Shown here: positions 10,764-60,246 of the stretch, in pieces
How the letters are laid out: each line of letters opens with the position of its first letter
Position numbering within the stretch: the first letter of the stretch is position 1
Assembly (NCBI GenBank): GCA_963771275.1
Contig: CAVYSW010000010.1
Span: 288,001-352,000, forward strand
From: an uncultured Gemmatimonadales bacterium
Lineage (GTDB): Bacteria > Gemmatimonadota > Gemmatimonadetes > Gemmatimonadales > GWC2-71-9
Length of the DNA stretch: 64,000 bases
Reading direction: 5' to 3'
Program-made: the position numbers and the translations under genes
The notes under the pieces: generated by a model
Databases searched by the model: none
What the model saw: the letters and a program-made list of their open reading frames with translations, nothing else
What the model was told of the DNA's origin: nothing

Positions 10764-10850
10764 CGGACAGGGTGGGATTCGAACCCACGAACCGGTTACC
10801 CGGTTACACGCTCTCCAGGCGTGTGCCTTCAGCCGCTCGGCCACCTGTCC
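10764..10850 (-). tRNA. tRNA-Ser (GGA)
   Basis: Reverse complement reads GGACAGG...CT GGA GA...long variable arm...GGTTCGAATCC...CCTGTCC G; CCA not encoded. Confidence 0.96.
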
Positions 10851-31887: not shown

Positions 31888-34563
31888 ATGATGGACCACC
31901 CGGGAAGACCCGTGCCCGCGGCAGCGGAGGCACTCGCCACGGCCCTCGCCGATTGCTACGTGGTCGAGCGGGAGCTGGGCCAGGGCGGGATGGCGACCGT
32001 CTACCTCGCCCGCGACCTCAAGCATGACCGCAAGGTCGCGCTCAAGGTGCTGCGGCCGGAGCTGGCGGCGGTGATCGGCGCCGAGCGGTTCCTGGCCGAG
32101 ATCAAGACGACTGCAAATCTGCAACATCCTCACATCCTCCCATTGCACGACTCCGGGGAGGCGGGCGGCTCGGTGTTCTACGTCATGCCGTACGTCGAGG
32201 GTGAGTCCTTGCGCGATCGGATCAGCCGCGAGAAGCAGCTGCCGGTGGACGAGGCTATCCGGCTGGCGCGGGAGGTCGCGAGCGCCCTCGACTATGCCCA
32301 TCGCCACGGGGTGATCCACCGCGACATCAAGCCCGAGAACATCCTGGTGCACGATGGGCAGGCGCTCGTGGCCGATTTCGGGATCGCGCTCGCGGTGAGC
32401 AGTGCCGGGGGGACGCGGATGACCGAGACGGGGATGAGTCTTGGGACGCCGCACTACATGAGTCCCGAGCAGGCCATGGGGGACCGAGAGCTCACCGCGC
32501 GGAGCGACGTATACGCACTCGGCGCCACGCTCTACGAGATGCTGGTCGGCGAGCCGCCGTTCACCGGGCCGACCGCGCAGGCGATCGTCGCTCGGGTCAT
32601 GACAGAGACGCCCCGGCCACTGCGCATTCAGCGCCACACGATTCCCGAGCACGTCGAGGCTGCCATCGCGACGGCGCTGGAGAAGCTGCCGGCTGACCGG
32701 TTTGGCTCGGCCGCGGAGTTTGCCACGGCGCTGCAGGACAGCGGGGCGTCGGACCGACGGACCGACGCCACGGTCCGTGACCGCGAGCGGCCGGCTCCGC
32801 CCCCGGTTCGCCGAGCCGTCTGGACCGTCGTGAGCGCCACGGCGATCGGGCTGCTCGGCGTGCTCGCCGCGTGGGGCTGGCTGCGGCGGCCGGCCGCGGC
32901 GGCGGGCGACGTCGTCCGCGCGGTGCTCGAGCTACCCCGCGGCATGTCGCTCAGCTACCCGTCGCTCGCGCTCTCCCGGGACGGGAGTCGCATCGTGGTG
33001 GCCGGTGAGCAGAGCGGCGCGAGTTTGCTGCTCGAGCGATCGCTCGACGGTCTGGCGTTCACGGCGATCCCGGGCAGCGAGGACGGCAACCGGCAGTTCC
33101 TCTCGCCGGACGGCAAGTGGGTGGCGTTCGGAGCCGGCAAGACGCTGCGCAAGGTCCCGCTCGATGGCGGGCCCGCCGCGGACGTCGCCAGGAGCCCGTG
33201 GGCGGGAGGCGACTGGACGGAAGACGGCACGATCATCTACACGCCGGACTACCTCAGCGGGCTGTGGCGCGTGTCCGCCGGGGGCGGGACGCCGGATCGC
33301 CTGACCGCCCCCGATAGCGCGCAGGGTGAGTTGGCCCACTGGTGGCCCCAGGTCCTTCCGGACCACGACCACGTGTTGTTCACCGCGTTCCGGACACCGC
33401 TCGAGCGGGCACGCATCGAGGTCCTGTCCCTGAAGACCGGGCAACGCAAGGTGTTGTTGGAAGGTGGCGTGTCGGGGCGGTACGTGACGGCGGGCTATCT
33501 GCTCTACGCGAAGAACGAAGCGCTGTTCGCGGTGCCGTTCGACGTCGGACGATTGGCGCTGACCGGGCAGCCGGTGCCGGTGATCCAGGACGTCGCGATC
33601 GAAGCGCCGGACGGACGCGCCGGCTTCGCGGTGTCCGATAACGGCACCCTGGCCTACATCGCGGCTTCGACGTTCGTTCCGGACCTCGACCTCGTGTGGG
33701 TCACGCGCCGTGGGGAAGCCGGGGCACCGATTACCACGCCCGGTCGCTTCACTAATCCCGCACTCTCGCCGGACGGCCGGCGCGTCGCGCTGGCCATCGC
33801 CCGGCCCGGCGAGCCGAAGGACGTGTGGGTGCTGGACCTGACGCGCGGCACCCGCACACCGCTTACCTCCGGGGGCGCGAATGACTTCGCGCCGATGTTC
33901 ACCACGAAGGGTGACCACGTCATCTTCGAGTCGGAACGACCGGTCTTCGATCTGTATGAGCGACCGACGGACGGCAGCACGCCGGCGACCGCCCTCCTGA
34001 CCACCGCGTTCGACAAGCAACCAGGGAGCATCACGCCGGACGGTCACACCCTGCTGTTCGCACACAACCTGCTGCCCCACCAGCAGGTGTGGGCGCTGTC
34101 GCTCGGGGACAGCGGCGCCGCGAAGCCCGTGCTGGCATCGGATGCCGGCGACCTGGAGGCACCGCGGATCGCGCCGAACGGACGGTGGCTGGCCTACACG
34201 TCGACCGAATCGGGACGGACGGACGTCTACCTGAGCCCCTACCCCGACGTGACGCGCGCGCGCTGGCCGGTTTCCGCCGACGGGGGAGACGAGCCGCGCT
34301 GGACGCGTGGTGGGCGTGAGCTGGTCTACCGGAGCGGGCAGCGCATGATGGCGGTGACCGTGGATCCGGCCTCGGGTGGGCTCGGCCCGCCAGCCGAGTT
34401 GTTCCGCGGCCCGTACGTGACCAGCTCGGATGGACAGAGCTACGACGTCACGCCGGACGGCGAGCGGTTCCTCATGCTCCGCCGGCCGGCGGGCACTGAG
34501 CCCCGGCAGGTGATCGTGGTGACGAACTGGTTCCGCGAGCTTCGGCGGCTCGTGCCCCGATGA
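31888..34563 (+). CDS. Ser/Thr protein kinase, TM helix, TolB-like beta-propeller (K1)
   Basis: GQGGMATVY, VALK, HRDIKPEN, DFG and GTPHYMSPEQ; TM VVSATAIGLLGVLAAWGWL; SPDG blades. Start may be slightly downstream. Confidence 0.93.
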   Translation: MMDHPGRPVPAAAEALATALADCYVVERELGQGGMATVYLARDLKHDRKVALKVLRPELAAVIGAERFLAEIKTTANLQHPHILPLHDSGEAGGSVFYVMPYVEGESLRDRISREKQLPVDEAIRLAREVASALDYAHRHGVIHRDIKPENILVHDGQALVADFGIALAVSSAGGTRMTETGMSLGTPHYMSPEQAMGDRELTARSDVYALGATLYEMLVGEPPFTGPTAQAIVARVMTETPRPLRIQRHTIPEHVEAAIATALEKLPADRFGSAAEFATALQDSGASDRRTDATVRDRERPAPPPVRRAVWTVVSATAIGLLGVLAAWGWLRRPAAAAGDVVRAVLELPRGMSLSYPSLALSRDGSRIVVAGEQSGASLLLERSLDGLAFTAIPGSEDGNRQFLSPDGKWVAFGAGKTLRKVPLDGGPAADVARSPWAGGDWTEDGTIIYTPDYLSGLWRVSAGGGTPDRLTAPDSAQGELAHWWPQVLPDHDHVLFTAFRTPLERARIEVLSLKTGQRKVLLEGGVSGRYVTAGYLLYAKNEALFAVPFDVGRLALTGQPVPVIQDVAIEAPDGRAGFAVSDNGTLAYIAASTFVPDLDLVWVTRRGEAGAPITTPGRFTNPALSPDGRRVALAIARPGEPKDVWVLDLTRGTRTPLTSGGANDFAPMFTTKGDHVIFESERPVFDLYERPTDGSTPATALLTTAFDKQPGSITPDGHTLLFAHNLLPHQQVWALSLGDSGAAKPVLASDAGDLEAPRIAPNGRWLAYTSTESGRTDVYLSPYPDVTRARWPVSADGGDEPRWTRGGRELVYRSGQRMMAVTVDPASGGLGPPAELFRGPYVTSSDGQSYDVTPDGERFLMLRRPAGTEPRQVIVVTNWFRELRRLVPR

Positions 34564-34644
34564 GCCGGCCACACGAGGACGTGGACGAGGTCGAGGCGCG
34601 CCGCGGGGCGGCGCGGTGACCGGCGCGGTGCCGATGGGGGGGCG

Positions 34645-36900
34645 ATGAGTGAGGTCACGGAGCGCCTGACGCACGCGCTCGACGGTCGCTACGCGATCGG
34701 GCGGGAGCTGGGCCAGGGCGGCATGGCGGTGGTCTACTTGGCGCGCGATCTGCGGCATGACCGCGACGTGGCGCTCAAGGTCCTCCGGCCCGACATCGCG
34801 TCGGAGATCGGCGCGGAGCGGTTTCTCCGCGAGATCAAGCTGGCCGCCCGGCTGACCCATCCCCACATCCTGCCGCTGTACGACTCGGGCGACGCGGACG
34901 GGCTGCTGTTCTACGTGATGCCCAACATGGAGGGCAGCTCGCTGCGCGAGCGGATGGACCGGGAGCGCCAGCTGCCGCTGACGGACGCGCTGGTGATCAC
35001 GCGCGAGGTGGCCTCGGCGCTGGACTATGCGCACCGGCACGGGGTGGTGCATCGCGACGTGAAGCCGGAGAACATCCTGCTGCACGAGGGCGCCGCGATG
35101 GTCGCCGACTTCGGGATCGGCAAGGCGTTGAGCGCCCAGGGCGGGGCGATCACGCAGACCGGGATCGCGGTCGGCACGCCCGCGTACATGAGCCCCGAGC
35201 AGGCCTCGGGCGAGACCGACGTGGACGGCCGCAGCGATCTCTACAGCCTGGGGTGCGTGCTGTACGAGATGCTGGCGGGCGAGCAGCCATTCACGGGCCC
35301 TACGGCGCAGGCCGTGATCACGAAGCGGTTCGTGGCCCCGATTCCCAAGGTGAGCCACAGCCGTGACGTGCCCGACGGCGTGGACCAGACGGTGACCCGC
35401 GCGCTGGCGCGGACGCCGGTGGATCGGTTCGCCTCGGCGGCCGAGTTCGTCGCGGCGCTCGATCTGATCCGGGCCGAGGGTGGCGCCACGCCGCCCGGCG
35501 GGCGGCCGTCGACGCCGCCGGCGCCCCGGAAGTCGATCGCGGTGCTGCCGTTCACCAACATGAGCGCCGATCCGGAGAACGAGTACTTCAGTGATGGCAT
35601 GACCGAGGAGATCATCAACGTTCTGGCCAAGGTGCCGGGGATGCAGGTGGCGTCACGGACCTCTGCGTTCGCGTTCAAGGGCAAGGAGATGGACGTGCGG
35701 CACGTCGGGGAGAAGCTCGGCGTGGGGTCGGTGCTCGAAGGCAGCGTGCGGAAGGTCGGCAATCGCATCCGGATCAGCGCGGAGTTGATCGACGTGGCGA
35801 CCGGGTACCACCTGTGGTCCGAGAAGTACGATCGGCAGCTGGAAGACGTGTTCGCGGTGCAGGACGAGATCGCGCGGGCGATCGTCGACGCCCTCAAGAT
35901 CCGCCTGGGTGGCGACACCGCCGTCCGGCTGGTGGTCCCCGCCACCGAGAACGTCGAAGCGTACACCCTGTACCTCAAGGGGCGGTTCTTCGTGAACCGG
36001 CTGTCCGAGCCGGAGGTGCGTCGCGGCCTGGACTTCTTCCAGCGGGCGTTGGCAACCGATCCGCAATACGCGCAGGCGCACGCGGGGATCGCGGACTGCT
36101 GGTGCAATCTCGCGGACAACTGGGTGGAGCCGGGCGAGGCGTATCCGCGGGCCAAAGCGGCGGCGGAGCAGGCGCTGGCCCTCGATCCGGACCTTGCCGA
36201 GGCGCTGACGTCGATCGGCAAGGTGCGCGGCTGGTACGAATGGGACTTCGCCGGCGCCGAGGAGGTGCTGCGGCGGGCCGTGCAGATCAACCCCAACTAC
36301 GCCGAGGCGCACTTCGTGTTCGGCAGCGCGCTGCCGTCGGTCGGCAAGCTCGACGAGGCCATCGGCGAGATGCGGCAGGCGCTCGTGGTCGACCCGCTGT
36401 CGGCGCACTTCAGTCGCTGGCTCGGCCGGTTCCACCTCTATGCCCGGGACTATGACCGTGCCATCGCCCAGAGCCGGAAGACGATGGAAATGGCCCCCGA
36501 GTATTCCCTGTCGTACCTCGACATGGGCGCGGCCCACCTCGCCAAGGGGGAACCCGAGGCGGCGTTGAAGCACTTCCAGCACGGCCAGTCCCTCAAGGCG
36601 GCGATCCGGTCGTACGACGCGCTGATCGTGCGTGCGCTCGCCGCGCTGGGACAGCGCGAAGAGGCGGACGCGATCATGGAACGGCTGGAGGACGAGGCGA
36701 AGCAGCAGTACGTCCGCCAGGAGGTCCTGGCGGTGGGATACGCGGCGCTGGGCGACGTGGACCGGGCGTTCGCCTGCCTGGACCGCGCGCTGGCGGAGCG
36801 CTCGGCCGGACTGGTGTATGTGCACATCGACCCGGGCTTTGATCCGTTGCGCGCCGAGCCGCGGTACGCGGCGCTGGTGGGACGGGTGGGGGTGAAATGA
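34645..36900 (+). CDS. Ser/Thr protein kinase with TolB-N-like and TPR domains, no TM (K2)
   Basis: Intact kinase motifs, SIAVLPFTNMSADPENEYFSDG and TPR-like helices (ALALDPDLAEA, INPNYAEAH). Confidence 0.93.
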   Translation: MSEVTERLTHALDGRYAIGRELGQGGMAVVYLARDLRHDRDVALKVLRPDIASEIGAERFLREIKLAARLTHPHILPLYDSGDADGLLFYVMPNMEGSSLRERMDRERQLPLTDALVITREVASALDYAHRHGVVHRDVKPENILLHEGAAMVADFGIGKALSAQGGAITQTGIAVGTPAYMSPEQASGETDVDGRSDLYSLGCVLYEMLAGEQPFTGPTAQAVITKRFVAPIPKVSHSRDVPDGVDQTVTRALARTPVDRFASAAEFVAALDLIRAEGGATPPGGRPSTPPAPRKSIAVLPFTNMSADPENEYFSDGMTEEIINVLAKVPGMQVASRTSAFAFKGKEMDVRHVGEKLGVGSVLEGSVRKVGNRIRISAELIDVATGYHLWSEKYDRQLEDVFAVQDEIARAIVDALKIRLGGDTAVRLVVPATENVEAYTLYLKGRFFVNRLSEPEVRRGLDFFQRALATDPQYAQAHAGIADCWCNLADNWVEPGEAYPRAKAAAEQALALDPDLAEALTSIGKVRGWYEWDFAGAEEVLRRAVQINPNYAEAHFVFGSALPSVGKLDEAIGEMRQALVVDPLSAHFSRWLGRFHLYARDYDRAIAQSRKTMEMAPEYSLSYLDMGAAHLAKGEPEAALKHFQHGQSLKAAIRSYDALIVRALAALGQREEADAIMERLEDEAKQQYVRQEVLAVGYAALGDVDRAFACLDRALAERSAGLVYVHIDPGFDPLRAEPRYAALVGRVGVK

Positions 36901-36913
36901 GGGAACGACCATC

Positions 36914-36994
36914 GTGTAGGGTGCAGCGTCCAGCGTGCAGCGGACCTGTCCGCCCGGTGGAGACCCGCTGCGCCTTGCACGCTGCGCCCTGCAA
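36914..36994. repeat. Inverted heptamer-tandem element (GTGCAGC family)
   Basis: GTGTAGG GTGCAGC GTCCAGC GTGCAGC ... GCTGCGC CTTGCAC GCTGCGC CCTGCAA. Confidence 0.75.
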
Positions 36995-37008
36995 GCGGAT
37001 GGCATCGC

Positions 37009-39642
37009 ATGCCTGACCCGGTGAGCCGGCTCTCCACCGCCCTTGGGGATCGCTACGTCATCGAGCGCGAGCTCGGCGCGGGCGGCATGGCGACGGTCTA
37101 CCTGGCGCAGGACGTGAAGCACGACCGCAAGGTCGCGCTCAAGGTCTTGAAGCCCGAGCTCGCCGCCGTCCTGGGCGCCGAGCGGTTCGTGGTGGAGATC
37201 AAGACCACCGCGAGCCTGCAACATCCGCACATCCTGCCGCTGTTCGACTCTGGGAGCGCCGGCGGCTTCCTCTACTACGTCATGCCCTACGTCGAGGGCG
37301 AGACCCTCCGCGACAAACTCAACCGGGAGACCCAGTTCGGCATCGAGGAGGCGGTGCGGATCACGACGGAGGTGGCGGATGCGCTGGACTACGCCCACCG
37401 CCACGGCGTGATCCACCGCGACATCAAACCCGAGAACATCCTGCTGCACGACGGCCGCCCGATGGTGGCGGATTTCGGGATCGCGCTGGCGGTGAGCGCC
37501 GCGGCCGGCGGCCGGATGACGGAGACGGGGCTCTCGCTCGGCACGCCGCACTACATGTCCCCCGAGCAGGCGACCGCCGAGAAGGAGCTGACGAACCGGG
37601 CGGACATCTACTCGCTGGGCAGCGTGCTGTACGAGATGCTCGCGGGGAATCCACCACACGTGGGGGCCTCGGCGCAGCAGATCATCATGAAGATCGTGAC
37701 GGAGGAGGCTGCGCCGGTCACGAATGTGCGGAAATCGGTGCCACCGAACGTGGCGGCGGCGGTCGCCAAGGCGCTTGAGAAGCTGCCCGCCGACCGGTTC
37801 GACACGGCGAAGGCGTTCGCCGAAGCGCTGACCAACGCGTCGTTCGCGGCGCCGGCCGCCGCGACGGCGGCGTCACCGGGCGCGCGGCGTCGGGACTGGC
37901 GGCCCTGGGCGGTCGCGGTCGGTCTTGGGGTGGCGGGCGTCGTCGTGGGGCGCCTGATGGTGGGCCGGGAAGGCCCCGCGCCGATCGTGGCGCGCTTCCG
38001 GGTGCCGGTGGACGCCGAGCGCGGGCTCACCGGCGCGCCGGTGAACACGCTCGCGCTCTCGCCCGACGGCCGTAGCGTCGTCTATGTGGGTCGTGCCGGC
38101 GGGGGCGCGTCGTACCAGCTCTACGAGCGGCGGCTGAGCGAGCTCGATGCGTTCCGGCCGATCGCGGGCACCGAGGGCGGGGCCTTCCCTGCGTTCTCCC
38201 CCGACGGTACGCGTCTGGCGTACGTCGGCGCCACGGGCGTGCAGGTCGTGCGTGTGCCGTTCACCGGCGCTCCGCCCACCCCGGTGGCCGCGAACGCCCT
38301 GGCCACCGCGGGGGTGTTCTGGCTCGATGACGCCACTTTGGTCGCGACCGACGCGCATGGCGGTATCCTGCGCGCCGGGCTCGACGGCACCTTGGCCTCG
38401 ATCGCCACGCCGGATACGGCGGCCCGGGAGCGGAATCTGTACGTGCAGACGACGCTGCCGGACCGGCATACGCTGCTCATGATCGTGTCCACCGGCACCG
38501 GTACCGATGGTCCCGTGGTCGCCCTGGACGTCCGCAACGGCACGCGCGCCACGGTCCTCGAGACGGCGGTCACCGCGGTCTGGTACGCGGACGGCTACCT
38601 GTTGTGGAGCCTGGCGAATGGCGCGCTCCAGGCCGCCCCGTTCGATGCCCGCCGCCATCGGGTGTCGGGCTCGGCGGTGACCCTGGCGGAGGGCGTGCGG
38701 CAGGCGATTGGCGGCGGTGGGCAGGTGGCGGTCTCGGCATCGGGCACGCTGGCGTACCTGCCGGAGCAGCCGTTCACCCTCATGCTCCTCGATCGGAGCG
38801 GTCGGCGCGAGGTCGCGGCCGAGGGGCACCGCTTTCACAGCCCGCGGCTCTCGCCCGACGGCCGGCACCTCGCCATGGACTTCATCCAGCAGGGGTCGCG
38901 GGACGTCTGGACGCTCGATCTCCGCCAGCGCACGCTCTCGCGGCTGTCGTTCGAGAATGACGGTCATGATCCGGTGTGGTCACGCGACGGGCGCTGGGTG
39001 TACTACGTGCACGCCACCGGCATCTGGCGGCGCCGCGCCGACGGCGCGGGTGGCGCCGACTCGGTGTACCAGGGTGCCTACAGCCAGGCGCTCGAGCTGG
39101 CGCCGGACGGTGCGATCATCGGTGCCGCCACGGGCACCAATGGCCTGTACGACCTGGTAGAGGTGTCGGCCGACACGCCGCACGTCCGGACGCCCCTCTT
39201 GGAGACGCCCTACACCGAGGAGGGCGCCACCCTGTCGCCGAACGGGCGCTGGCTGGCGTATTCGAGCGACGAGACGGGCCGTAACGAGATCTATGTGCGC
39301 CCCTATCCCGCCGGCGGTGCCAAGGTGCTCGTGTCACAGGGGGGCGGCATCGAGCCGCGGTGGAGCCCGGACGGACGCTCGCTCTACTACCAGAGCGAGC
39401 ACGACGGGGTGCCGTATCTGTTCGCGGCCGGCGTCGCCACCAGTCCCGACTTCGCGGTCACGAGCCGTACGCCGCTGTTCGACATCTCCCAGTTCGAGCC
39501 GGCCGAGCCGCACGCCAACTGGGATGTCTCGCCCGACGGCACCCGGTTCGTCATGGTGCACCAGGGGGCGCTCATCGAGATGATCTTCGTCCTGAACTGG
39601 CCCGAGGAGGTACGGCGCCAGAACGGCGCTGGCTCGCGATGA
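37009..39642 (+). CDS. Ser/Thr protein kinase, TM helix, TolB-like beta-propeller (K3)
   Basis: Intact kinase motifs; TM WAVAVGLGVAGVVVG; SPDG/WSPDG blades. Confidence 0.94.
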   Translation: MPDPVSRLSTALGDRYVIERELGAGGMATVYLAQDVKHDRKVALKVLKPELAAVLGAERFVVEIKTTASLQHPHILPLFDSGSAGGFLYYVMPYVEGETLRDKLNRETQFGIEEAVRITTEVADALDYAHRHGVIHRDIKPENILLHDGRPMVADFGIALAVSAAAGGRMTETGLSLGTPHYMSPEQATAEKELTNRADIYSLGSVLYEMLAGNPPHVGASAQQIIMKIVTEEAAPVTNVRKSVPPNVAAAVAKALEKLPADRFDTAKAFAEALTNASFAAPAAATAASPGARRRDWRPWAVAVGLGVAGVVVGRLMVGREGPAPIVARFRVPVDAERGLTGAPVNTLALSPDGRSVVYVGRAGGGASYQLYERRLSELDAFRPIAGTEGGAFPAFSPDGTRLAYVGATGVQVVRVPFTGAPPTPVAANALATAGVFWLDDATLVATDAHGGILRAGLDGTLASIATPDTAARERNLYVQTTLPDRHTLLMIVSTGTGTDGPVVALDVRNGTRATVLETAVTAVWYADGYLLWSLANGALQAAPFDARRHRVSGSAVTLAEGVRQAIGGGGQVAVSASGTLAYLPEQPFTLMLLDRSGRREVAAEGHRFHSPRLSPDGRHLAMDFIQQGSRDVWTLDLRQRTLSRLSFENDGHDPVWSRDGRWVYYVHATGIWRRRADGAGGADSVYQGAYSQALELAPDGAIIGAATGTNGLYDLVEVSADTPHVRTPLLETPYTEEGATLSPNGRWLAYSSDETGRNEIYVRPYPAGGAKVLVSQGGGIEPRWSPDGRSLYYQSEHDGVPYLFAAGVATSPDFAVTSRTPLFDISQFEPAEPHANWDVSPDGTRFVMVHQGALIEMIFVLNWPEEVRRQNGAGSR

Positions 39643-39770
39643 GTGAGATCCTCGGACGCCTGAGCGGGGCGCTCGCGAACCGGTACGCCATCGAGCGGGA
39701 GCTCGGGCAGGGTGGCATGGCCACGGTGTCCCTGGCCGACGCGTGGGTGATGAACCTGGTACCCCAATGA
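39639..39770 (+). pseudogene. 43-aa relic of a sixth kinase (N-terminus fused to a short tail)
   Basis: MSEILGRLSGALANRYAIERELGQGGMATVSLADAWVMNLVPQ*; ATGA overlaps at both ends. Confidence 0.8.
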
Positions 39771-42463
39771 CCGACATCACCCGCCTCACCACGGCCCTCG
39801 CCGATCGCTACCGCATCGAGCGCGAGCTCGGCCAGGGCGGCATGGCCACCGTCTACCTGGCCCACGACGTGCGGCACGACCGCAAGGTCGCACTCAAGGT
39901 GCTCCGGCCCGAATTGGCGGCGGTGATCGGGGCCGAGCGATTCCTGGTCGAGATCAAGACGACGGCCAACCTGCAGCACCCGCACATCCTCCCGTTGCAC
40001 GACTCGGGCGAGGCCGACGGGACGGTGTTCTACGTCATGCCGTACGTCGAGGGCGAGAGCCTGAGGGACCGCCTCACGCGCGAGCGCCAGCTGCCGGTGG
40101 ACGACGCCGTCCGCATCGCACGCGAGGTGGCCGACGCGCTGGACTACGCGCACCGCCACGGCGTGATCCACCGGGACATCAAGCCCGAGAACATTCTGCT
40201 GCACGACGGCCGCGCGCTGGTCGCCGACTTCGGGATCGCGCTGGCGGTGTCGCGCTCGGACGGCGGCACCCGGATGACCGAGACCGGGATGTCGCTCGGC
40301 ACGCCGCATTACATGAGTCCCGAGCAGGCGATGGGGGAGCGCGAGATCACGGCCAAGAGCGACGTGTATGCGCTGGGGTGTGTGTTGTATGAGATGCTCG
40401 CCGGCGAGCCACCGTTCGCGGGGCCCACGGCCCAGGCCGTCATTGCGCGGGTGCTGACCGAGGAGCCGCGCGGCCTCACGCTCCAGCGCCGCACCATCCC
40501 GCCGCACGTCGACGCTGCGGTGTTGAAGGCGCTGGCCAAGCTCCCTGCCGATCGGTACAGCGGCGCGGCCGAGTTCGGCGCGGCACTCGCCACCCCCCAG
40601 TTCGTCGCGTCGGCCGGGACCGGGACGCTCGGCACGGCCACTCGTACCGCCATGCCGCCGTACCGCCTCTCCGTCGCAACCATCGTTTTCGCCGCCATCG
40701 CCATCCTGGCCGCCGCCCTCGCCGCCTGGGGCTGGCTCCGCGTGCGGGCTGCCGAGCATCCGCCGGCGACGTGGCAGTACATCTCACTCGGCGACAGCGT
40801 CACGGTGGCGCTGGACTACCCGGCGATGGCGGTCTCACCTGACGGCTCCACGCTGGTGTTCAAGGACCGGCGGCAAAACAGCCTGCTCTGGATCAAGCAG
40901 CGGGGCCAGCTCGACCCCACGCCGATTCCGAGCACGGAGCGCGCGCAGAACCCAATCTTCTCACCAGACGGCGAGTGGATTGCCTTCGTGGCCGACCAAC
41001 GCCTCAAGAAGGTGCGTCGGACCGGCGGCGCCACCGTGACCATCGCCGACTCCGTGGCCAACGGGTTCGGCGGGGCGGCATGGCTGGACGACGGCACGCT
41101 CGTATACATGACGCAAACGCTCCTGACGCTGCGACGCGTAAGTGCCAGCGGGGGATCGAGCACGGTCGCCTTGACCGCGCTGCTGGATAGCGCGCTGGGC
41201 GGCGGGGGCATCGGTCATCCCGTGCCGTTGCCCGGCGCGCGCGGCGTGCTCTTCCAGGTTTGCTCCTCGGGCTGTGTCACCATGAGCATCCACGTCCTGG
41301 ACCTGCGCACGGGGGTCCAGAAGGCGTTGCTGGACGACGTGGCACAGGCCTGGTACTTGCCCAACGGTCGCTTGCTCTACGTGCGGCGTGACGGGGTGGC
41401 GATGGCCGCGCCGTTCGATCTCGACCGCCTGGAGATCACCGGAGAAGCCGTGCCGGTCCTCGAAGGCGTCGAGGTACAGCTCAGCCAGGCCTACGCGATG
41501 CTCGACTGGTCGCCGTCCGGCTCCCTGGTCTACGTCCATGGAACCGGCACCTCCACCGATGTCTCGTTCGTTCGGGTGAGCCGCGACGGTCTGATCGCAC
41601 CGATCGATACCGCGTGGTACGGACAATTCAACTCGCTCTCGGTCTCGCCGGACGGGAGGCGCCTGGCCGTCGGCGTCGGATTGGGAGGCGGGCTCAACAT
41701 CTGGGTCAAGCAGCTGGACCACGGTCCCTTCACGCGGCTCACGTTTAGCAACCAGGACCGCCGGCCGGCCTGGTCACCCGACGGGAAGCTCGTGGCCTTC
41801 GTGCGTGACAGCGCCGGCACCAGCGCCGTGTACGCCCGTCCCGCAGATGGGAGCGGACCCGACCGCCCGCTGGCCCGCATCGATCGTATGGTGCAGGAGA
41901 TCGCGTGGTCGCCGGACGGCGGCTGGCTCGTGCTCCGCACGGACAACACCATGGCCGGCGCGGGTGACCTCGTTGCCGTGCGCACGCGCGGCGACGCGAC
42001 GCCCGTTCCGCTGGTGGCGAGCAGCTTCACCGAGCTGCAACCCGCCATCTCGCCCGACGGGCGTTGGCTCGCGTACACCTCCAACGAATCCGGCACGAAC
42101 GAGGTCTATGTCCGCCCATTCCCGAATGCGAATGACGGCCACTGGCAGGTCTCGAACGGTGGCGGTGAATCGCCCAGATGGGCGCCCTCGGGACGCGAGC
42201 TGTTCTATCTGAACCGCGAAGGCCGCCTCATCGCCGCCGAGGTACAGCCGACAACCACGACGTTCGCCGTGGGCCGTCTCATGCCCTTGTTCGACGCGTC
42301 CGCGTTCTTGAATGACGGCTTCCATCAGGGATACGATGTGACGCCGGACGGCCGATCCTTCATCTTCCTGAGCCCGCGCGGGGGCACCGCGACCAACATG
42401 GCGCCGCAGATCGTGTGGGTGGATCATTGGTTCACGGATCTCGCGGCGCGGTTGAGGCAATGA
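39767..42463 (+). CDS. Ser/Thr protein kinase, TM helix, TolB-like beta-propeller (K4)
   Basis: MTDITRLTTALADRY start, intact kinase motifs, TM IVFAAIAILAAALAAWGWL and PD40 blades. Confidence 0.94.
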   Translation: MTDITRLTTALADRYRIERELGQGGMATVYLAHDVRHDRKVALKVLRPELAAVIGAERFLVEIKTTANLQHPHILPLHDSGEADGTVFYVMPYVEGESLRDRLTRERQLPVDDAVRIAREVADALDYAHRHGVIHRDIKPENILLHDGRALVADFGIALAVSRSDGGTRMTETGMSLGTPHYMSPEQAMGEREITAKSDVYALGCVLYEMLAGEPPFAGPTAQAVIARVLTEEPRGLTLQRRTIPPHVDAAVLKALAKLPADRYSGAAEFGAALATPQFVASAGTGTLGTATRTAMPPYRLSVATIVFAAIAILAAALAAWGWLRVRAAEHPPATWQYISLGDSVTVALDYPAMAVSPDGSTLVFKDRRQNSLLWIKQRGQLDPTPIPSTERAQNPIFSPDGEWIAFVADQRLKKVRRTGGATVTIADSVANGFGGAAWLDDGTLVYMTQTLLTLRRVSASGGSSTVALTALLDSALGGGGIGHPVPLPGARGVLFQVCSSGCVTMSIHVLDLRTGVQKALLDDVAQAWYLPNGRLLYVRRDGVAMAAPFDLDRLEITGEAVPVLEGVEVQLSQAYAMLDWSPSGSLVYVHGTGTSTDVSFVRVSRDGLIAPIDTAWYGQFNSLSVSPDGRRLAVGVGLGGGLNIWVKQLDHGPFTRLTFSNQDRRPAWSPDGKLVAFVRDSAGTSAVYARPADGSGPDRPLARIDRMVQEIAWSPDGGWLVLRTDNTMAGAGDLVAVRTRGDATPVPLVASSFTELQPAISPDGRWLAYTSNESGTNEVYVRPFPNANDGHWQVSNGGGESPRWAPSGRELFYLNREGRLIAAEVQPTTTTFAVGRLMPLFDASAFLNDGFHQGYDVTPDGRSFIFLSPRGGTATNMAPQIVWVDHWFTDLAARLRQ

Positions 42464-42465
42464 GC

Positions 42466-42539
42466 GTGCTGCGTGCCGCGCGCACCGTGCAGCGTGACCG
42501 CCGAGGATGGGTAGTCACGCTGGACGCTGGACGCTGGAC
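42466..42539. repeat. Inverted heptamer-tandem element (GTGCAGC family)
   Basis: GTGCTGC GTGCCGC GCGCACC GTGCAGC GTGAC ... GTCAC GCTGGAC x3. Confidence 0.75.
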
Positions 42540-42557
42540 CCCACTCGGCGAAGCCCC

Positions 42558-45281
42558 GTGAGCGAGATCCCCTCGCGCCTCGCCAGCGCCCTCGCCGACC
42601 GCTACCGCATCGACCGAGAGCTCGGCGCCGGCGGCATGGCCACGGTGTATCTCGCCCACGACGTGAAGCACGATCGCAAGGTCGCGCTCAAGGTGCTGAG
42701 GCCCGAGCTCGCCGCCGTGCTCGGCGCTGAGCGCTTCGTGGTCGAGATCAAGACCACTGCGGCGCTTCAGCACCCCCACATCCTGCCGCTGTACGACAGC
42801 GGCAGAGCGGCAGGAGGGGCAGGAGGGGTCGGGGGCGCGGGTGAGTTCCTCTTCTACGTCATGCCCTATGTCGAGGGGGAGACCCTACGCGAGAAGCTCA
42901 GTCGCGAGACGCAGCTGTCGATTGACGAGGCGGTCCGGATCACCACCGACGTGGCCGATGCCCTCGCCTATGCCCATCGGCACGGGGTGATTCACCGGGA
43001 TATCAAGCCCGAGAACATCCTGCTGCACGACGGCCGGCCGATGGTGGCCGACTTCGGGATCGCCCTGGCGGTGAGCGCCGCGGCGGGCGGGCGGATGACC
43101 GAAACCGGCCTCTCGCTCGGGACGCCGCACTACATGAGTCCCGAGCAGGCGACGGCCGAGAAGGACCTCACGGGGCGGTCCGATCTCTACTCGCTTGGCG
43201 CGGTGCTGTACGAGATGCTGACGGGGAACCCGCCGCACACGGGTGCCTCGGCGCAGCAGATCATCATGAAGATCGTGACGGAGGAGGCGGCACCCGTCAC
43301 GAACGCCCGCAAGTCGGTGCCGCCGCACGTGGCGGCCGCGGTGGCGAAGGTCCTCGAGAAGCTGCCGGCGGATCGGTTCGCGACCGCCCACGAGTTCGCC
43401 GAGGCGCTGCAGGGCAGGGGCGGCGTGCCGTCCCCGGGCTGGACCGCGGCCGGGCGCGCGGCGCAGGGCCGCCCGCCGGTGGCGGCCCGCTGGCGCGCCC
43501 GCCTGCGCGATCCGCTCGTCGCCGGGCCGTCCCTCGTGGCCGTGGCGGCGCTCGCGGCCGCGATCGGGCTCGCACGACGACCGGATGCACCCGCGCCCGT
43601 TCCCCCCATCCGGTTCGTCTTGGCCGCGACCGACAGCGCGAAGCCGGCGGACAACTTCCCGTGGCCGGCGGCGATCTCACCCGATGGCGGCACGGTCGTC
43701 TACTCCGTGGCGCAGGGCGCGGCCAGCTCGATGTTCTACGTGCTCCGGACCGACCAGTTGGAGGGACGTCCGATTCCGGGAACGGCGGATGCGTATCAAC
43801 CGTTCTTCTCGCCCGATGGCGCGTGGCTCGGATTCGAGCAGTCGGGCAAGGAGCGCAAGGTGCGGCTCGACGGCAGTGCGCCGGTGACGATTGTCGACGC
43901 CAGCGGCGCAAACGGCGCCGACTGGGGGGTCGGCGACGAGATCGTGCTTGGCGCCCAGGGTCGCTTCCATGGCCTGTCGCAGGTGAGCGCCGCCGGGGGT
44001 GAGGCGGTCGCGCTCACCCAGCCCGACACGGCGCACGGCGAAACCGATCATCTCTGGCCCATCGCCCTGCCCGATGGGAAGACGATCGCGTTCACGATCT
44101 GGTCGGGCAGTCTTGCCGCCGCTCGGCTTGGGCTCACTTCCCTCAATGACGGCGCGGTGGTGCCACTCGGCATCCCGGGGATCCGCCCGCTGACGGTGCT
44201 CGACGGCATGCTGCTCTACGTCCAGGCCGACGGAGCGGTGATGGCGGTCTCGCTGGATGGGCGCCGCAAGCGAACCAACGGGAGACCGATTCCCGTGCAC
44301 GATCCCATCCCGGTCGGGGCCGGCAACAACGGCAATTCCGGGATCTTCATCTCGCGTGGCGGGGCGATGGTGACGGCCCGCGGCGGCACGCGCGGTCGGC
44401 TGGTCTGGGTGTCGCGCGATGGGCGCGCGCAGCCGGTGCTGCCGCAGCCGCGCGGCTTCACGTTCCCGCGGCTCTCGCCCGACGAGCGCCGCATCGCGGT
44501 CGTGGTGTCGGAAGACCAGAAGAGCGATGTCTGGATCTACGATCTGACCCTCGCGACGTTCTCGCGGCTGACATCCGCCGAGACGGTGACGTCCGTGGAG
44601 TGGGGCGCGGACGGCTCGCGCGTGCTGTTCGCGGCGGTCGGGGAGGAGACGCGCGCCGCGGTCTGGTCGCAGCCGGCCTCCGGTGGATCGGCGGCCGAGA
44701 AGCTCTTCGAGCACGCGCTGCTGACGCCCGTGGCGACGATGTCGCCCGACGGCCAGTCGCTCCTCCTGCAATCCCTCAACGAATCCTCCTGGGACATCTT
44801 CCGCGTCCCGCTCGATTCGCAGCGCGTTGCGCGAAGCTACCTCGCGACGAAGGCGCAGGAGACGGCGCCGCGATTCTCCCCGGACGGCCACTGGGTGGCC
44901 TTCGAGTCGGACGAATCGGGCCGCACGGAAGTGTACGTCCGCTCATTCCCCGATCCGTCGTCGAAGGTGCAGATCTCGGTGGCTGGCGGGAGCAGGCCGG
45001 CGTGGTCCCCCGATGGTCAGCGGCTCTACTACCGATGGGGCTCCCTGTTGCTCGCGGCGAGAATCTCATTCACGCCGACGTTCACGCTGCTGGGGAGGGA
45101 CACCGTCCTCTCCAACGTGACCTTCCCGAGCCTCAACTATTCGGGGAACTACGAGGTGACGCGCGACGGCAGGCGGATTCTCGCGGTCGTGCCGGATCGG
45201 GACGACTACGGGCTGGTCGTGTCCCCCAACTGGATCACCGAGTTCCGCCGGCGCGTCGCCGAGAGCGGTGGGAGGCGGTAG
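42558..45281 (+). CDS. Ser/Thr protein kinase, TM helix, TolB-like beta-propeller (K5)
   Basis: GTG start (VSEIPSRLASALADRY), intact kinase motifs, TM LVAVAALAAAIGLA and PD40 blades. Confidence 0.94.
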   Translation: MSEIPSRLASALADRYRIDRELGAGGMATVYLAHDVKHDRKVALKVLRPELAAVLGAERFVVEIKTTAALQHPHILPLYDSGRAAGGAGGVGGAGEFLFYVMPYVEGETLREKLSRETQLSIDEAVRITTDVADALAYAHRHGVIHRDIKPENILLHDGRPMVADFGIALAVSAAAGGRMTETGLSLGTPHYMSPEQATAEKDLTGRSDLYSLGAVLYEMLTGNPPHTGASAQQIIMKIVTEEAAPVTNARKSVPPHVAAAVAKVLEKLPADRFATAHEFAEALQGRGGVPSPGWTAAGRAAQGRPPVAARWRARLRDPLVAGPSLVAVAALAAAIGLARRPDAPAPVPPIRFVLAATDSAKPADNFPWPAAISPDGGTVVYSVAQGAASSMFYVLRTDQLEGRPIPGTADAYQPFFSPDGAWLGFEQSGKERKVRLDGSAPVTIVDASGANGADWGVGDEIVLGAQGRFHGLSQVSAAGGEAVALTQPDTAHGETDHLWPIALPDGKTIAFTIWSGSLAAARLGLTSLNDGAVVPLGIPGIRPLTVLDGMLLYVQADGAVMAVSLDGRRKRTNGRPIPVHDPIPVGAGNNGNSGIFISRGGAMVTARGGTRGRLVWVSRDGRAQPVLPQPRGFTFPRLSPDERRIAVVVSEDQKSDVWIYDLTLATFSRLTSAETVTSVEWGADGSRVLFAAVGEETRAAVWSQPASGGSAAEKLFEHALLTPVATMSPDGQSLLLQSLNESSWDIFRVPLDSQRVARSYLATKAQETAPRFSPDGHWVAFESDESGRTEVYVRSFPDPSSKVQISVAGGSRPAWSPDGQRLYYRWGSLLLAARISFTPTFTLLGRDTVLSNVTFPSLNYSGNYEVTRDGRRILAVVPDRDDYGLVVSPNWITEFRRRVAESGGRR

Positions 45282-45328: not shown

Positions 45329-46471
45329 ATGATACGACGTCGCTGGAGCCTCCCGATCGTGACGGTTGCCGTCCTGACCGCCTGTGCGCCTTCTTCGACC
45401 GGTGGCAACGCGCCGCCGCCCGCCACCCGCACCTACTACGTCGCCGCCGACGAGGTGGACTGGGACTACGCGGCCGGCGAGGATCGCAACCTGGTCACCG
45501 GCCAGCCGTACGACAGCGTCGCGCGGGTGTTCGTCGGGAGCGGGCCGACCGACATCGGCCGGGTGTATCGCAAGGCCGTGTACCGCGAGTACACCGACTC
45601 GACCTTCACCACGCTGAAGGCGCGCGCTCCGGCCTGGGAGCACCTCGGGATCCTCGGCCCGCTGCTGCGCGCCGTCGTGGGAGACACGTTGCGGATCGTG
45701 TTCTTGAACCGCGCCCGCTTCCCGGCCAGCGTGCATCCGCACGGCGTGTTCTACGCCAAGGACGCGGAGGGAGCGCCGTACGCCGACTCGACCGGCGGCG
45801 CCGACAAGGCCGACGACGGGGTGCCGACCGGCGGCACGCATGTCTACGTCTGGCCCGTTCCGGAGCGGGCCGGCCCCGGCCCCGGTGACCCGAGCTCCGT
45901 GATGTGGATGTATCACTCGCACGTCAACGACGAGCGCGACGTCGATGCCGGACTCGTCGGGCCGATCATCGTCACGGCGCGGCGGGCCGCCCGCGCCGAC
46001 GGCACGCCCAAGGACGTCGATCGCGAGCTCGTGGTCGCGTTCGCCGAGTTCGACGAGAACCAGAGCTGGTACCTCGCCGACAACGTCACGGCGCACGTCG
46101 GCGATCCCGCCAAGGTGAGGATCGTCAAGACGCCGTTCGGGGAGGACGCCCAGGAGCCCGGCGGGAGCGGCAACTTCAAGGAGTCAATGAACGGCTACCT
46201 GTTCGGTCACCTGCCCGGGCTGCGCATGCGGGTGGGCGAGCGGGTGCGCTGGTACCTGATGGCCACCACGGGCTTCGAGTTCCACGCGCCGCACTGGCAC
46301 GGCAACACCGTGCTGGTGAACGGCATGCGCACGGACGTGACCGCGCTGCTCCCCATGGGGATGCTCGCGGCCGACATGGTGCCCGACGATCCCGGCACGT
46401 GGCTGTTCCACTGTCACGTCGGTCCCCACCTCCAGGCGGGCATGGAGGCGCTCTACCATGTGGCGCCCTGA
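45329..46471 (+). CDS. Two-domain multicopper oxidase lipoprotein (ceruloplasmin-like)
   Basis: Lipobox LTAC; HPHG, YHSH, HAPHWHG and HCHVGPHLQAGM copper motifs. Confidence 0.9.
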   Translation: MIRRRWSLPIVTVAVLTACAPSSTGGNAPPPATRTYYVAADEVDWDYAAGEDRNLVTGQPYDSVARVFVGSGPTDIGRVYRKAVYREYTDSTFTTLKARAPAWEHLGILGPLLRAVVGDTLRIVFLNRARFPASVHPHGVFYAKDAEGAPYADSTGGADKADDGVPTGGTHVYVWPVPERAGPGPGDPSSVMWMYHSHVNDERDVDAGLVGPIIVTARRAARADGTPKDVDRELVVAFAEFDENQSWYLADNVTAHVGDPAKVRIVKTPFGEDAQEPGGSGNFKESMNGYLFGHLPGLRMRVGERVRWYLMATTGFEFHAPHWHGNTVLVNGMRTDVTALLPMGMLAADMVPDDPGTWLFHCHVGPHLQAGMEALYHVAP

Positions 46472-46501: not shown

Positions 46502-47356
46502 ATGACCGCACCGCGCGCGCCCCAGGATGCGGACATCGACGTGTACGGGCTCACGCACGTCGGCAACGTCCGCAAGGAGAACCAGGATCACTTCCTGATC
46601 GCCGCCCTGCACAAGCAGATGGTGGTGCAGAGCACGAGCCTGCCGGCCGACGTCCCCCTGCCGGTGGATCCCGAGCGCCTGGCGTCGCTCGCCATGGTGG
46701 CGGACGGCGTGGGGAGCGGCGCGGGGGAGGAAGCGAGCCGCCTGGCGCTCCAGGCGGTGGCGCAGTACGTGGCGCAGAGCACTCAGACGTTCTACACGTC
46801 GGACGCGACCGAGCCCGCGGCGTTCGCGGAGCTGCTGTCTGACGCCGCGATGCGCTGCCACCAGAGCCTGCTCGAGCGCGCCGAGCAGGAGGGCCGGCCC
46901 GGCCGGTTCGCGACGACGCTCACGCTGTGGCTCGGCCTGTGGCCCCAGGCATACCTGCTGCAGGTCGGGGACAGCCGCTGCTACCTCTATCGGGACGGGC
47001 GCCTCACGCAGATCTCCCGCGACCAGACGATGGCGGAGGACCTGGTGGACCAGGGGGTGCTGACGCGCACCAATGCCTTCCGCACACGCTGGGCCCACGT
47101 GCTCTCAAGCGCGATCGGCGGGCAGCAGGCGGCCCCCGTCGTCACCCGGATCGTGCGCGACTGGGGGGCGATCGTGCTGCTGTGCAGCGACGGCCTCACG
47201 AAGCACGTGTCCGACGAGCGGATCACCGAGCGGCTCGCGGCGCTGACCAGCTCGCGGCAGGCGTGCGAGGCGCTGCTCCAGGACGCGCTCGATGACGGCG
47301 GGACCGACAACGTCACGGTCGTGATCGGTCGCACCGTGCCGCGGAGCGGTCCCTGA
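46502..47356 (+). CDS. PP2C/PPM Ser/Thr protein phosphatase
   Basis: THVGNVRKENQD, VADGVG, VGDSRCY, LCSDGL and GGTDNVTV. Confidence 0.93.
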   Translation: MTAPRAPQDADIDVYGLTHVGNVRKENQDHFLIAALHKQMVVQSTSLPADVPLPVDPERLASLAMVADGVGSGAGEEASRLALQAVAQYVAQSTQTFYTSDATEPAAFAELLSDAAMRCHQSLLERAEQEGRPGRFATTLTLWLGLWPQAYLLQVGDSRCYLYRDGRLTQISRDQTMAEDLVDQGVLTRTNAFRTRWAHVLSSAIGGQQAAPVVTRIVRDWGAIVLLCSDGLTKHVSDERITERLAALTSSRQACEALLQDALDDGGTDNVTVVIGRTVPRSGP

Positions 47357-60159: not shown

Positions 60160-60246
60160 CGGAGAGGGTGGGATTCGAACCCACGATACCGTTACCGGTA
60201 TACCGGTTTTCGAGACCGGCTCCTTCAACCACTCGGACACCTCTCC
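60160..60246 (-). tRNA. tRNA-Ser (CGA)
   Basis: Reverse complement reads GGAGAGG...CT CGA AA...long variable arm...GGTTCGAATCC...CCTCTCC G. TATAAT lies upstream (60257-60262); CCA not encoded. Confidence 0.96.

Follow-up and report, generated by a model that had tools for sequence, protein, structure and literature searches.

The layout of the receptors reported here, a kinase followed by a transmembrane (TM) segment and an extracellular propeller, is that of Mycobacterium tuberculosis PknD, and dimerization through the N-lobe is described as activating both PknD and PknB (PMC3601408). Expansions of Ser/Thr kinases (STKs) with propeller or TPR tails are likewise documented in Planctomycetota and myxobacteria, where WD40 and TPR sensors are periplasmic, PD40 is among the commonest tethered domains, and species-specific kinase clades have been ascribed to duplication and/or recombination (PMC11032199, PMC2877116). 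Sensor classes, tandem arrays of the present family and head exchange do not appear to be analysed in these two papers, and the word ‘Gemmatimonadota’ occurs in neither main text. The STK paralogues of the soil bacterium Solibacter usitatus, which belongs to a different phylum, are also old and divergent with no positive selection, in an account that does not appear to extend to the level of domains (PMC3174227). A further parallel is found in Tlp2, Tlp3 and Tlp4 of Campylobacter jejuni, paralogous receptors whose signalling domains are identical while the sensors are ~30% identical, whose sensor and signalling trees differ, and whose copy number varies (PMC9769880). As kinase-PD40/WD40/TPR architectures and their expansions have been published (PMC2877116, PMC3174227, PMC11032199), and neither the parts nor the recombination mechanism is new in itself, the surprise in the present locus is moderate.

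We analysed a 64,000-nucleotide stretch (hereafter the window) of the 3.86 Mb, 70% GC genome of an uncultured Gemmatimonadales bacterium, which carries five kinase genes, K1 to K5, in tandem. While PknD has one six-bladed propeller, four of these proteins have two PD40 propellers, the distal one TolB-like, and unlike PknD and PknB they belong to multi-gene arrays with exchanged heads. They share with Tlp2/Tlp3/Tlp4 a common signalling part and divergent sensors; those are chemoreceptors encoded by three genes with one output, whereas the array receptors are Ser/Thr kinases of dozens of classes, in tandem arrays and with at least two kinase types. By analogy, the array may work like PknD-type receptors and evolve like the C. 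jejuni trio. Our search turned up no publication that describes these arrays or an exchange of heads within the family, though subscription papers or supplements could contain one. We consider it probable that the array comprises conserved double-propeller sensors, each with its own ligand, and that their kinase heads are swapped by occasional recombination that rewires the outputs.

Gene content of the array

An initial annotation, made from the letters of the window, had described five co-oriented full-length Hanks kinases, and this description holds (Table 1). In all five, the G-loop, VALK, alphaC-Glu, HRDxKPEN, DFG, GTPxYMSPE and DxYxLG motifs and the subdomain XI Arg are present, and Pfam Pkinase matches with E-values of 1e-46 to 1e-51; PD40 matches K1, K3, K4 and K5, and TPR matches K2. 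The likely starts of K4 (39767) and K5 (42558) correct the ORFs first listed, and the K5 kinase has a 10-aa Gly/Ala insertion. That list was right in its five ORFs and overlooked a 43-codon kinase-head remnant, the start of which overlaps the K3 stop and the stop of which overlaps the K4 start, with ATGA at both junctions. The remnant is likely the scar of a deleted array member.

Table 1. Features of the kinase array and its surroundings (window coordinates)
Feature	Position	Strand	Description
K1	31888..34563	+	Kinase 31954-32703, TM 32815-32871, double PD40 propeller 32911-34560; sensor class c2, kinase type A; possible GTG start at 31912
K2	34645..36900	+	Kinase 34687-35430; TolB_N (presumed)/CadC-HilA-like domain and TPR tail 35527-36897; no TM
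Long hairpin, 7-nt repeats	36915..36993	.	K2-K3 spacer; similar hairpin at 42463-42539
K3	37009..39642	+	Kinase 37051-37800, TM 37909-37965, double propeller 37984-39639; sensor class c6, kinase type B
Kinase-head remnant, 43 codons	39639..39770	+	G-loop intact, truncated after
K4	39767..42463	+	Kinase 39806-40558, TM 40667-40723, double propeller 40763-42460 with invariant CxxxC; sensor class c0, kinase type A
K5	42558..45281	+	Kinase 42600-43379, TM 43515-43571, double propeller 43602-45278; ORF open from 42507; sensor class c1, kinase type B
PP2C-type Ser/Thr phosphatase	46502..47356	+	Two genes 3' of the array

The array (31888-45281) holds four of the five kinase-propeller genes of the host genome, in which 50 ORFs match the kinase profile, 46 of them near-complete. 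The spacer hairpins are not kinase-specific, with one of ten lying near a kinase. A scan for promoters returned one site where 0.5 were expected, and no terminator on the + strand, and Rfam returned two tRNAs and nothing else. Several flanking ORFs are shadow frames without a Pfam match and were ignored.

Ectodomain fold and topology

For comparison across relatives we collected 134 complete genes from 38 genomes; the regions were chosen from best hits, so the sample leans to K1-K5-like genes, and partial, frameshifted and weakly matching genes were left out. K1, K3, K4 and K5 each have one hydrophobic segment after the kinase (Kyte-Doolittle 1.99-2.58), while the best in K2 reaches 1.3, in agreement with its earlier description as a TPR-tailed kinase with no TM. 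A post-kinase segment of hydropathy at least 1.6 is present in 122 of the 134 genes, and a second such segment in 12. In 78 genes the kinase side carries the greater net positive charge, in 38 the two sides are equal, and in 18 the kinase side carries the smaller one. Propellers have no cysteine in 71 genes, two or four in 56 and an odd number in seven, against none in 56 kinases, one in 73 and two in five; this tally is inflated by relatedness, many of the pairs coming from the class of K4, which alone among the window's four receptors has ectodomain cysteines. Cysteine parity points to disulphides and to a periplasmic propeller. On these grounds K1, K3, K4 and K5 are predicted to be single-pass receptor Ser/Thr kinases, and the layout first proposed, with the propeller probably outside, is supported by the TM segment, the charge bias and the paired cysteines.

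An AlphaFold2 model of the K4 ectodomain (~560 aa) from a 114-row alignment (pLDDT 93.9, pTM 0.90) resolves into two six-bladed propellers by strand list and fold matches; a single-sequence model of full-length K4 (pLDDT 40) was discarded. The distal propeller, at approximately residues 263-540, has its best fold match in TolB of the Tol-Pal system (Z 24.9-27.6, rmsd 2.6-2.9, 247-257 residues aligned) and is inserted into the proximal one, a discontinuous propeller that the C-terminal strand closes. The proximal propeller aligns with the PknD sensor 1rwi (Z 20.6, rmsd 3.0, 241 residues, model range 4-562). Unlike TolB, the array protein is membrane-anchored and kinase-fused, and with TIGR02800 it scores 81-100 bits, far under the family cut-off of 343. 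Foldseek gave no full-length match to the double propeller (best TM 0.34), which is not evidence of a new fold. The ectodomains of the four receptors had been thought to share little beyond SPDG blade motifs. Their pairwise identity is indeed low (29.5-36%), yet they are homologous over the full length of a 12-blade scaffold and have a common NW..L tail.

Distribution and neighbouring genes

The closest homologues are found in Gemmatimonadales or Gemmatimonadota, with others in Acidobacteriota and further groups; a threshold of E 1e-40 or better gives at least 5,642 matching protein clusters. Of 30 relatives, 24 have a match to the ectodomain profile, as do 78 of 151 genomes of the phylum (at most nine candidates scored per genome), the latter confined to four of twelve families. 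As the initial annotation had anticipated, copy number and gene order vary. The relatives hold 0-19 copies each, with 1, 4, 14, 19, 15 and 6 in six same-genus genomes that are 71-89% complete; the largest arrays reach approximately ten genes in 30 kb (relative G004), islands extend to approximately 19 kinases over 75 kb (G163), and the genes are not ordered alike.

PP2C is the most recurrent non-kinase neighbour family (eight genomes). Among 25 PP2C matches of at least 55% identity, six have a propeller kinase within 3 kb, and the three closest orthologues do not. The neighbouring PP2C is likely a counteracting phosphatase. Peptidases and transporters recur as neighbours too, in raw counts without background control.

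Sensor classes and selection

At 50% propeller identity the 134 genes fall into 57 sensor classes, of which 31 are singletons. The class of K4 has 24 genes in 24 genomes, that of K5 has 11 in 11, that of K1 five in five and that of K3 four in four, and two copies occur in just 2 of 132 genome-class combinations. With orthologues 50-90% identical, each array ectodomain is an old conserved class, nearly single-copy per genome. In 29 pairs with propeller identity of at least 70%, dN over four-fold distance, a rough whole-domain measure with synonymous sites near saturation, is 0.07-0.32 for the propeller (25 computable, four saturated) and 0.01-0.27 for the kinase (26 computable). The dN/dS comparison across relatives thus indicates purifying selection, and ectodomains that had been described as highly variable and diversifying turn out to be conserved classes. 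Purifying selection across relatives is among the outcomes that the initial annotation had itself named as counting against its reading.

Propellers typically bind ligands on their top face. With top-face positions taken from strand order rather than coordinates, this face is more divergent between classes (0.16/0.21 against 0.26/0.30 at other positions), and within classes it is on average no more conserved than elsewhere (0.52/0.58 against 0.53/0.58; conservation of 0.78 against 0.75 for the K4 distal propeller within its class). Conservation among 103 full-length proteins of the K4 class is 97-100% at D332, R333, R334, D349, Q378, E379, R392, T393, D394, N395 and E424 and at both cysteines. 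Because this class keeps an invariant Asp/Arg/Glu/Asn/Gln cluster, our best guess is that the ligands may be small charged molecules or peptide/envelope fragments.

The reading first proposed, in which the array is a rapidly diversifying repertoire for recognising phage, competitors or surfaces under positive selection, as in plant receptor-kinase clusters, could draw on the many classes and singletons, on the span of copy numbers, and on the divergence of top faces between classes. It could also draw on an apparent cross-genus transfer of a K4 ectodomain, which is 90% identical with four-fold identity of 0.66-0.68 where GyrB in the same comparison is 79-80% identical with 0.42-0.43, misbinning being possible. 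GyrB is the species baseline for five genomes; RecA was unusable because none of the six same-genus genomes matched. We regard this reading as unlikely in view of the whole-domain dN/dS, and of the four closest K4 relatives, where 4-7 changes at 48 distal top-face positions against 44-70 at 460 others give no top-face excess. There are, moreover, no clear propeller mosaics (one weak case in 134 genes), and nothing found points to phage or competitors, the recurrent neighbours being phosphatase, peptidases and transporters rather than defence genes. The array does have the tandem clusters, copy-number variation and recombination of immune-type receptor clusters; positively selected clusters of that type were rejected on the same dN/dS and top-face results.

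Exchange of kinase heads

Long identical kinase stretches among K1, K3, K4 and K5, as first noticed, are confirmed: over ~250 aligned aa the four are 71-90% identical pairwise, with longest identical runs of 18-65 aa, and the kinases of K3 and K5 share 87-90% identity with unrelated sensor classes. Across all pairs of the 134 genes, kinase identity and propeller identity are uncorrelated (Spearman 0.04), against 0.55 between the two propeller halves and 0.66 between the two kinase halves. Separate kinase and propeller trees, which the initial annotation had suggested building, are incongruent. AU tests, which covered 38 rows out of 134 and used LG+G4 without mixture (false rejections by the tool in this mode, 5 of 71), reject kinase monophyly for all five classes tested (p 5.4e-4, 9e-5, 2.5e-4, 1.3e-4 and 1.2e-3). 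In the tree of either propeller half the same five classes are recovered with SH-aLRT of 98-100, a control that is partly circular because the classes were defined from propellers.

Individual cases display the exchange directly. Some relatives have fresh conversion tracts: two genes of G021 share a kinase tract of 455 identical nt and are 98% identical in the kinase against 23% in the propeller, and a pair in G151 shares a tract of 248 nt. Moreover, between G123 and G001/G002 the propellers are 90% identical and the kinases 67%. Of 388 cross-class pairs within one genome, five have a four-fold identity of at least 0.70, a level reached by none of 400 sampled cross-genome pairs. In sliding windows the partner switches at the linker just after the kinase, so that TM and propeller travel together. 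The K1 ectodomain has orthologues of 74-76% identity in G004 and G006, the kinases of which are 92% identical mutually and 72-73% identical to that of K1, itself 84% identical to the K4 kinase. Within the window no recent conversion was detected, since four-fold sites are at or near saturation (identity 0.44-0.58, with 0.45 expected by chance) and no shared run of DNA exceeds 44 nt.

Exchange is occasional or episodic, not constant. Within the K4 class (103 proteins) the two domains are for the most part inherited together: their identities correlate (rho 0.49), the best kinase match lies in the own class in 81 of 102 cases, and 5 of 186 close pairs are inverted. The 32 recurrent neighbour families scanned include nothing that would mark a cassette- or DGR-driven diversifying system, be it a silent cassette of sensors, a recombinase dedicated to the purpose or a reverse transcriptase.

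Some of the chimeras could be mis-assemblies, since many of the genomes are fragmented MAGs. That the incongruence as a whole is an artefact, similar kinase halves having been joined to the wrong propellers, is a notion to which the short contigs of many relatives, breaking inside kinase genes, lend some substance. We consider it very unlikely, as kinase and propeller remain just as uncoupled in the 59 genes that come from 11 assemblies of at most 30 contigs (rho 0.07), where a same-class kinase is the nearest neighbour in 5 of 24 distant-orthologue cases. The independent genomes G151 and G163 have the same sensor-kinase pairings (none of the 8 orthologue pairs has changed its kinase, the identity being 95-99%), kinase paralogues in the window are usually 67-83% identical in DNA, and the K2 kinase shows no such shuffling.

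Kinase types and outputs

The closest solved structure to the kinase is PknB (E 7e-60), and N-lobe residues aligned with the PknB N-terminal region (Y2, D21, R26 and D66-S67-G68) are invariant in all 134 genes. The array is not the PASTA-domain Stk1/PknB equivalog, NF033483 scoring 303-318 bits against a cut-off of 450 over the kinase part only, with no PASTA match; nor does it represent the defence kinases BREX PglW (79-92 against 990 bits) or MADS Mad6 (MAD6 model, 163-189 against 460 bits), the scores lying under the family cut-offs. A complex prediction for the K4 and K3 kinases scored 0.00, which is no answer and weighs neither way.

The C-lobe region around helix G is where substrates would dock. 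Clustering of this region gave two main types, A and B, of 97 and 30 genes, with seven others, at a cut-off picked from three after viewing a broad identity histogram. More than one type occurs in 10 of 26 multi-member sensor classes, while type A is kept by all 24 members of the K4 class. The common output initially envisaged for the array is an oversimplification, because at least two C-lobe types are present among its kinases (Table 1).

The principal alternative is that an old receptor-kinase family undergoes neutral birth and death, and that head exchange, a by-product of the many similar 750-bp kinase halves maintained within a genome, is without effect on signalling. We rate this a little short of an even chance. 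Swaps are rare relative to divergence, and kinase identity is 0.757 between adjacent genes against 0.740 between non-adjacent ones. The family looks dispensable because 6 of 30 relatives, each at least 90% complete, have no match. Truncated kinase heads also occur, 8 short against 183 long in the loci examined, with at least one of the short heads at a contig end and the census an undercount because the window's own remnant was merged with K4. Against neutrality, type B C-lobes are ~79% identical across 15 genomes and 20 sensor classes, so that the head type looks selected, and the clean post-kinase breakpoints suggest that whole-domain swaps are the ones retained. Neutral turnover and rewiring by exchanged heads invoke the same recombination mechanism and differ on consequence only.

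The place of K2

K2 is predicted to be cytoplasmic, with a Pfam TPR match, matches to HilA and CadC models and a middle domain that we take to be TolB_N. It had been cast as a cytoplasmic relay for the four receptors, so that the five genes would form one pathway. Its orientation, its spacing of 81-108 bp from its neighbours, its missing TM and the presence of TolB_N-TPR kinases in many arrays are in keeping with such a role, which we nevertheless find quite unlikely. Among its 10 closest orthologues (62-71% tail identity, eight genomes) one adjoins a propeller kinase and another lies ~12 kb away, and in G006 a K3-class gene comes immediately after one of the K1 class. The K2 kinase is 77-82% identical to those of seven orthologues and 59-66% to K1, K3, K4 and K5, travelling with its own tail, and the K2-type domain is found in 12 kinase ORFs of the host genome. 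K2 is best explained as a passenger in the array, a separate lineage that comes from a sister family of kinases.

Implications for sensing and signalling

Returning to conserved sensors with exchanged heads, a plausible course of events would be as follows. Each sensor likely binds its own periplasmic ligand on the propeller top face, and the ligand would cluster receptors so that N-lobe dimerization activates the kinase, by analogy with PknD and PknB. The C-lobe type may then direct the signal to one of at least two substrate sets, and the neighbouring PP2C would reset it. From time to time, recombination between similar kinase halves would replace the head of one gene with that of another, and the same recombination likely drives gene gain and loss in the array. 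A head swap would rewire a sensor to another output with sensing unchanged.

More tentatively, and as something less likely than not, the arrays of Gemmatimonadales may form a combinatorial system in which dozens of conserved sensors are traded horizontally and connected by whole-domain recombination to a small number of kinase output types, each with substrates of its own. If this is true, strains would differ in their sensor-to-response map and not in sensor sequence. The receptors constitute a sensor family that is very large, uncharacterised and found in common bacteria that are uncultured, and classes with invariant pocket residues provide well-delimited starting points for finding ligands. 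Head swaps that occur in nature offer ready tests of sensor versus output specificity in bacterial Ser/Thr signalling.

Possible exchange of kinase heads and sensor domains

In a relative's genome, a kinase of the TolB_N-TPR architecture (locus L141:9441-11828; G163:C9:53441) carries a head, or kinase half, that is 85-86% identical to the heads of propeller kinases, and this sequence identity suggests that head exchange can cross architectures. Between genera, the ectodomain of the K4 sensor class at L124:5969-8635 is 90% identical to those at L019 and L018, as against 79-80% for GyrB, our species baseline, which would reflect either transfer of the sensor or misbinning. At G000:C5:36989-40464 in the source genome (G000), a kinase with a TolB_N-like domain is only 491 codons long, and its end overlaps another open reading frame that encodes PD40 repeats; a frameshift in the gene or a fault in the assembly may account for this.

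Repeats and other genes

The 10-aa Gly/Ala insertion of K5, located in the N-lobe hairpin after DSG, is encoded by 3.2 copies of a G-rich 9-nt repeat (window 42798-42828). The K2-K3 spacer has a folding energy of -71.7 kcal/mol; hairpin elements of the 7-nt-repeat type have 10 matches in the source genome, one of them near a kinase. In a few genomes, members of the small two-domain multicopper oxidase family are again found close to arrays. Two recA matches were found in the source genome, G000:C10:16065-17024 and G000:C6:12712-13419, the latter spanning only 236 of 321 model positions.

Features of the window and of the source genome
Feature	Location	Strand	Remark
Small two-domain multicopper oxidase	window 45371-46471		between K5 and the PP2C gene
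tRNA-Ser	window 10764-10850	minus	
tRNA-Ser	window 60160-60246	minus	
Spacer hairpin, 7-nt repeats	window 36915-36993		K2-K3 spacer
Spacer hairpin, 7-nt repeats	window 42463-42539		
BTAD transcriptional-activator head, array-type tail	G000:C9:87397-90189		
BTAD transcriptional-activator head, array-type tail	G000:C5:19119-21785		

Array-type tails on BTAD regulators

BTAD heads in the source genome bear the same kinds of tail as the array kinases (TM-PD40 propeller; TolB_N-like-TPR). SARP/BTAD regulators are known as targets of kinases, and the two proteins are candidates either for substrates of the kinases or for outputs that run parallel to them.
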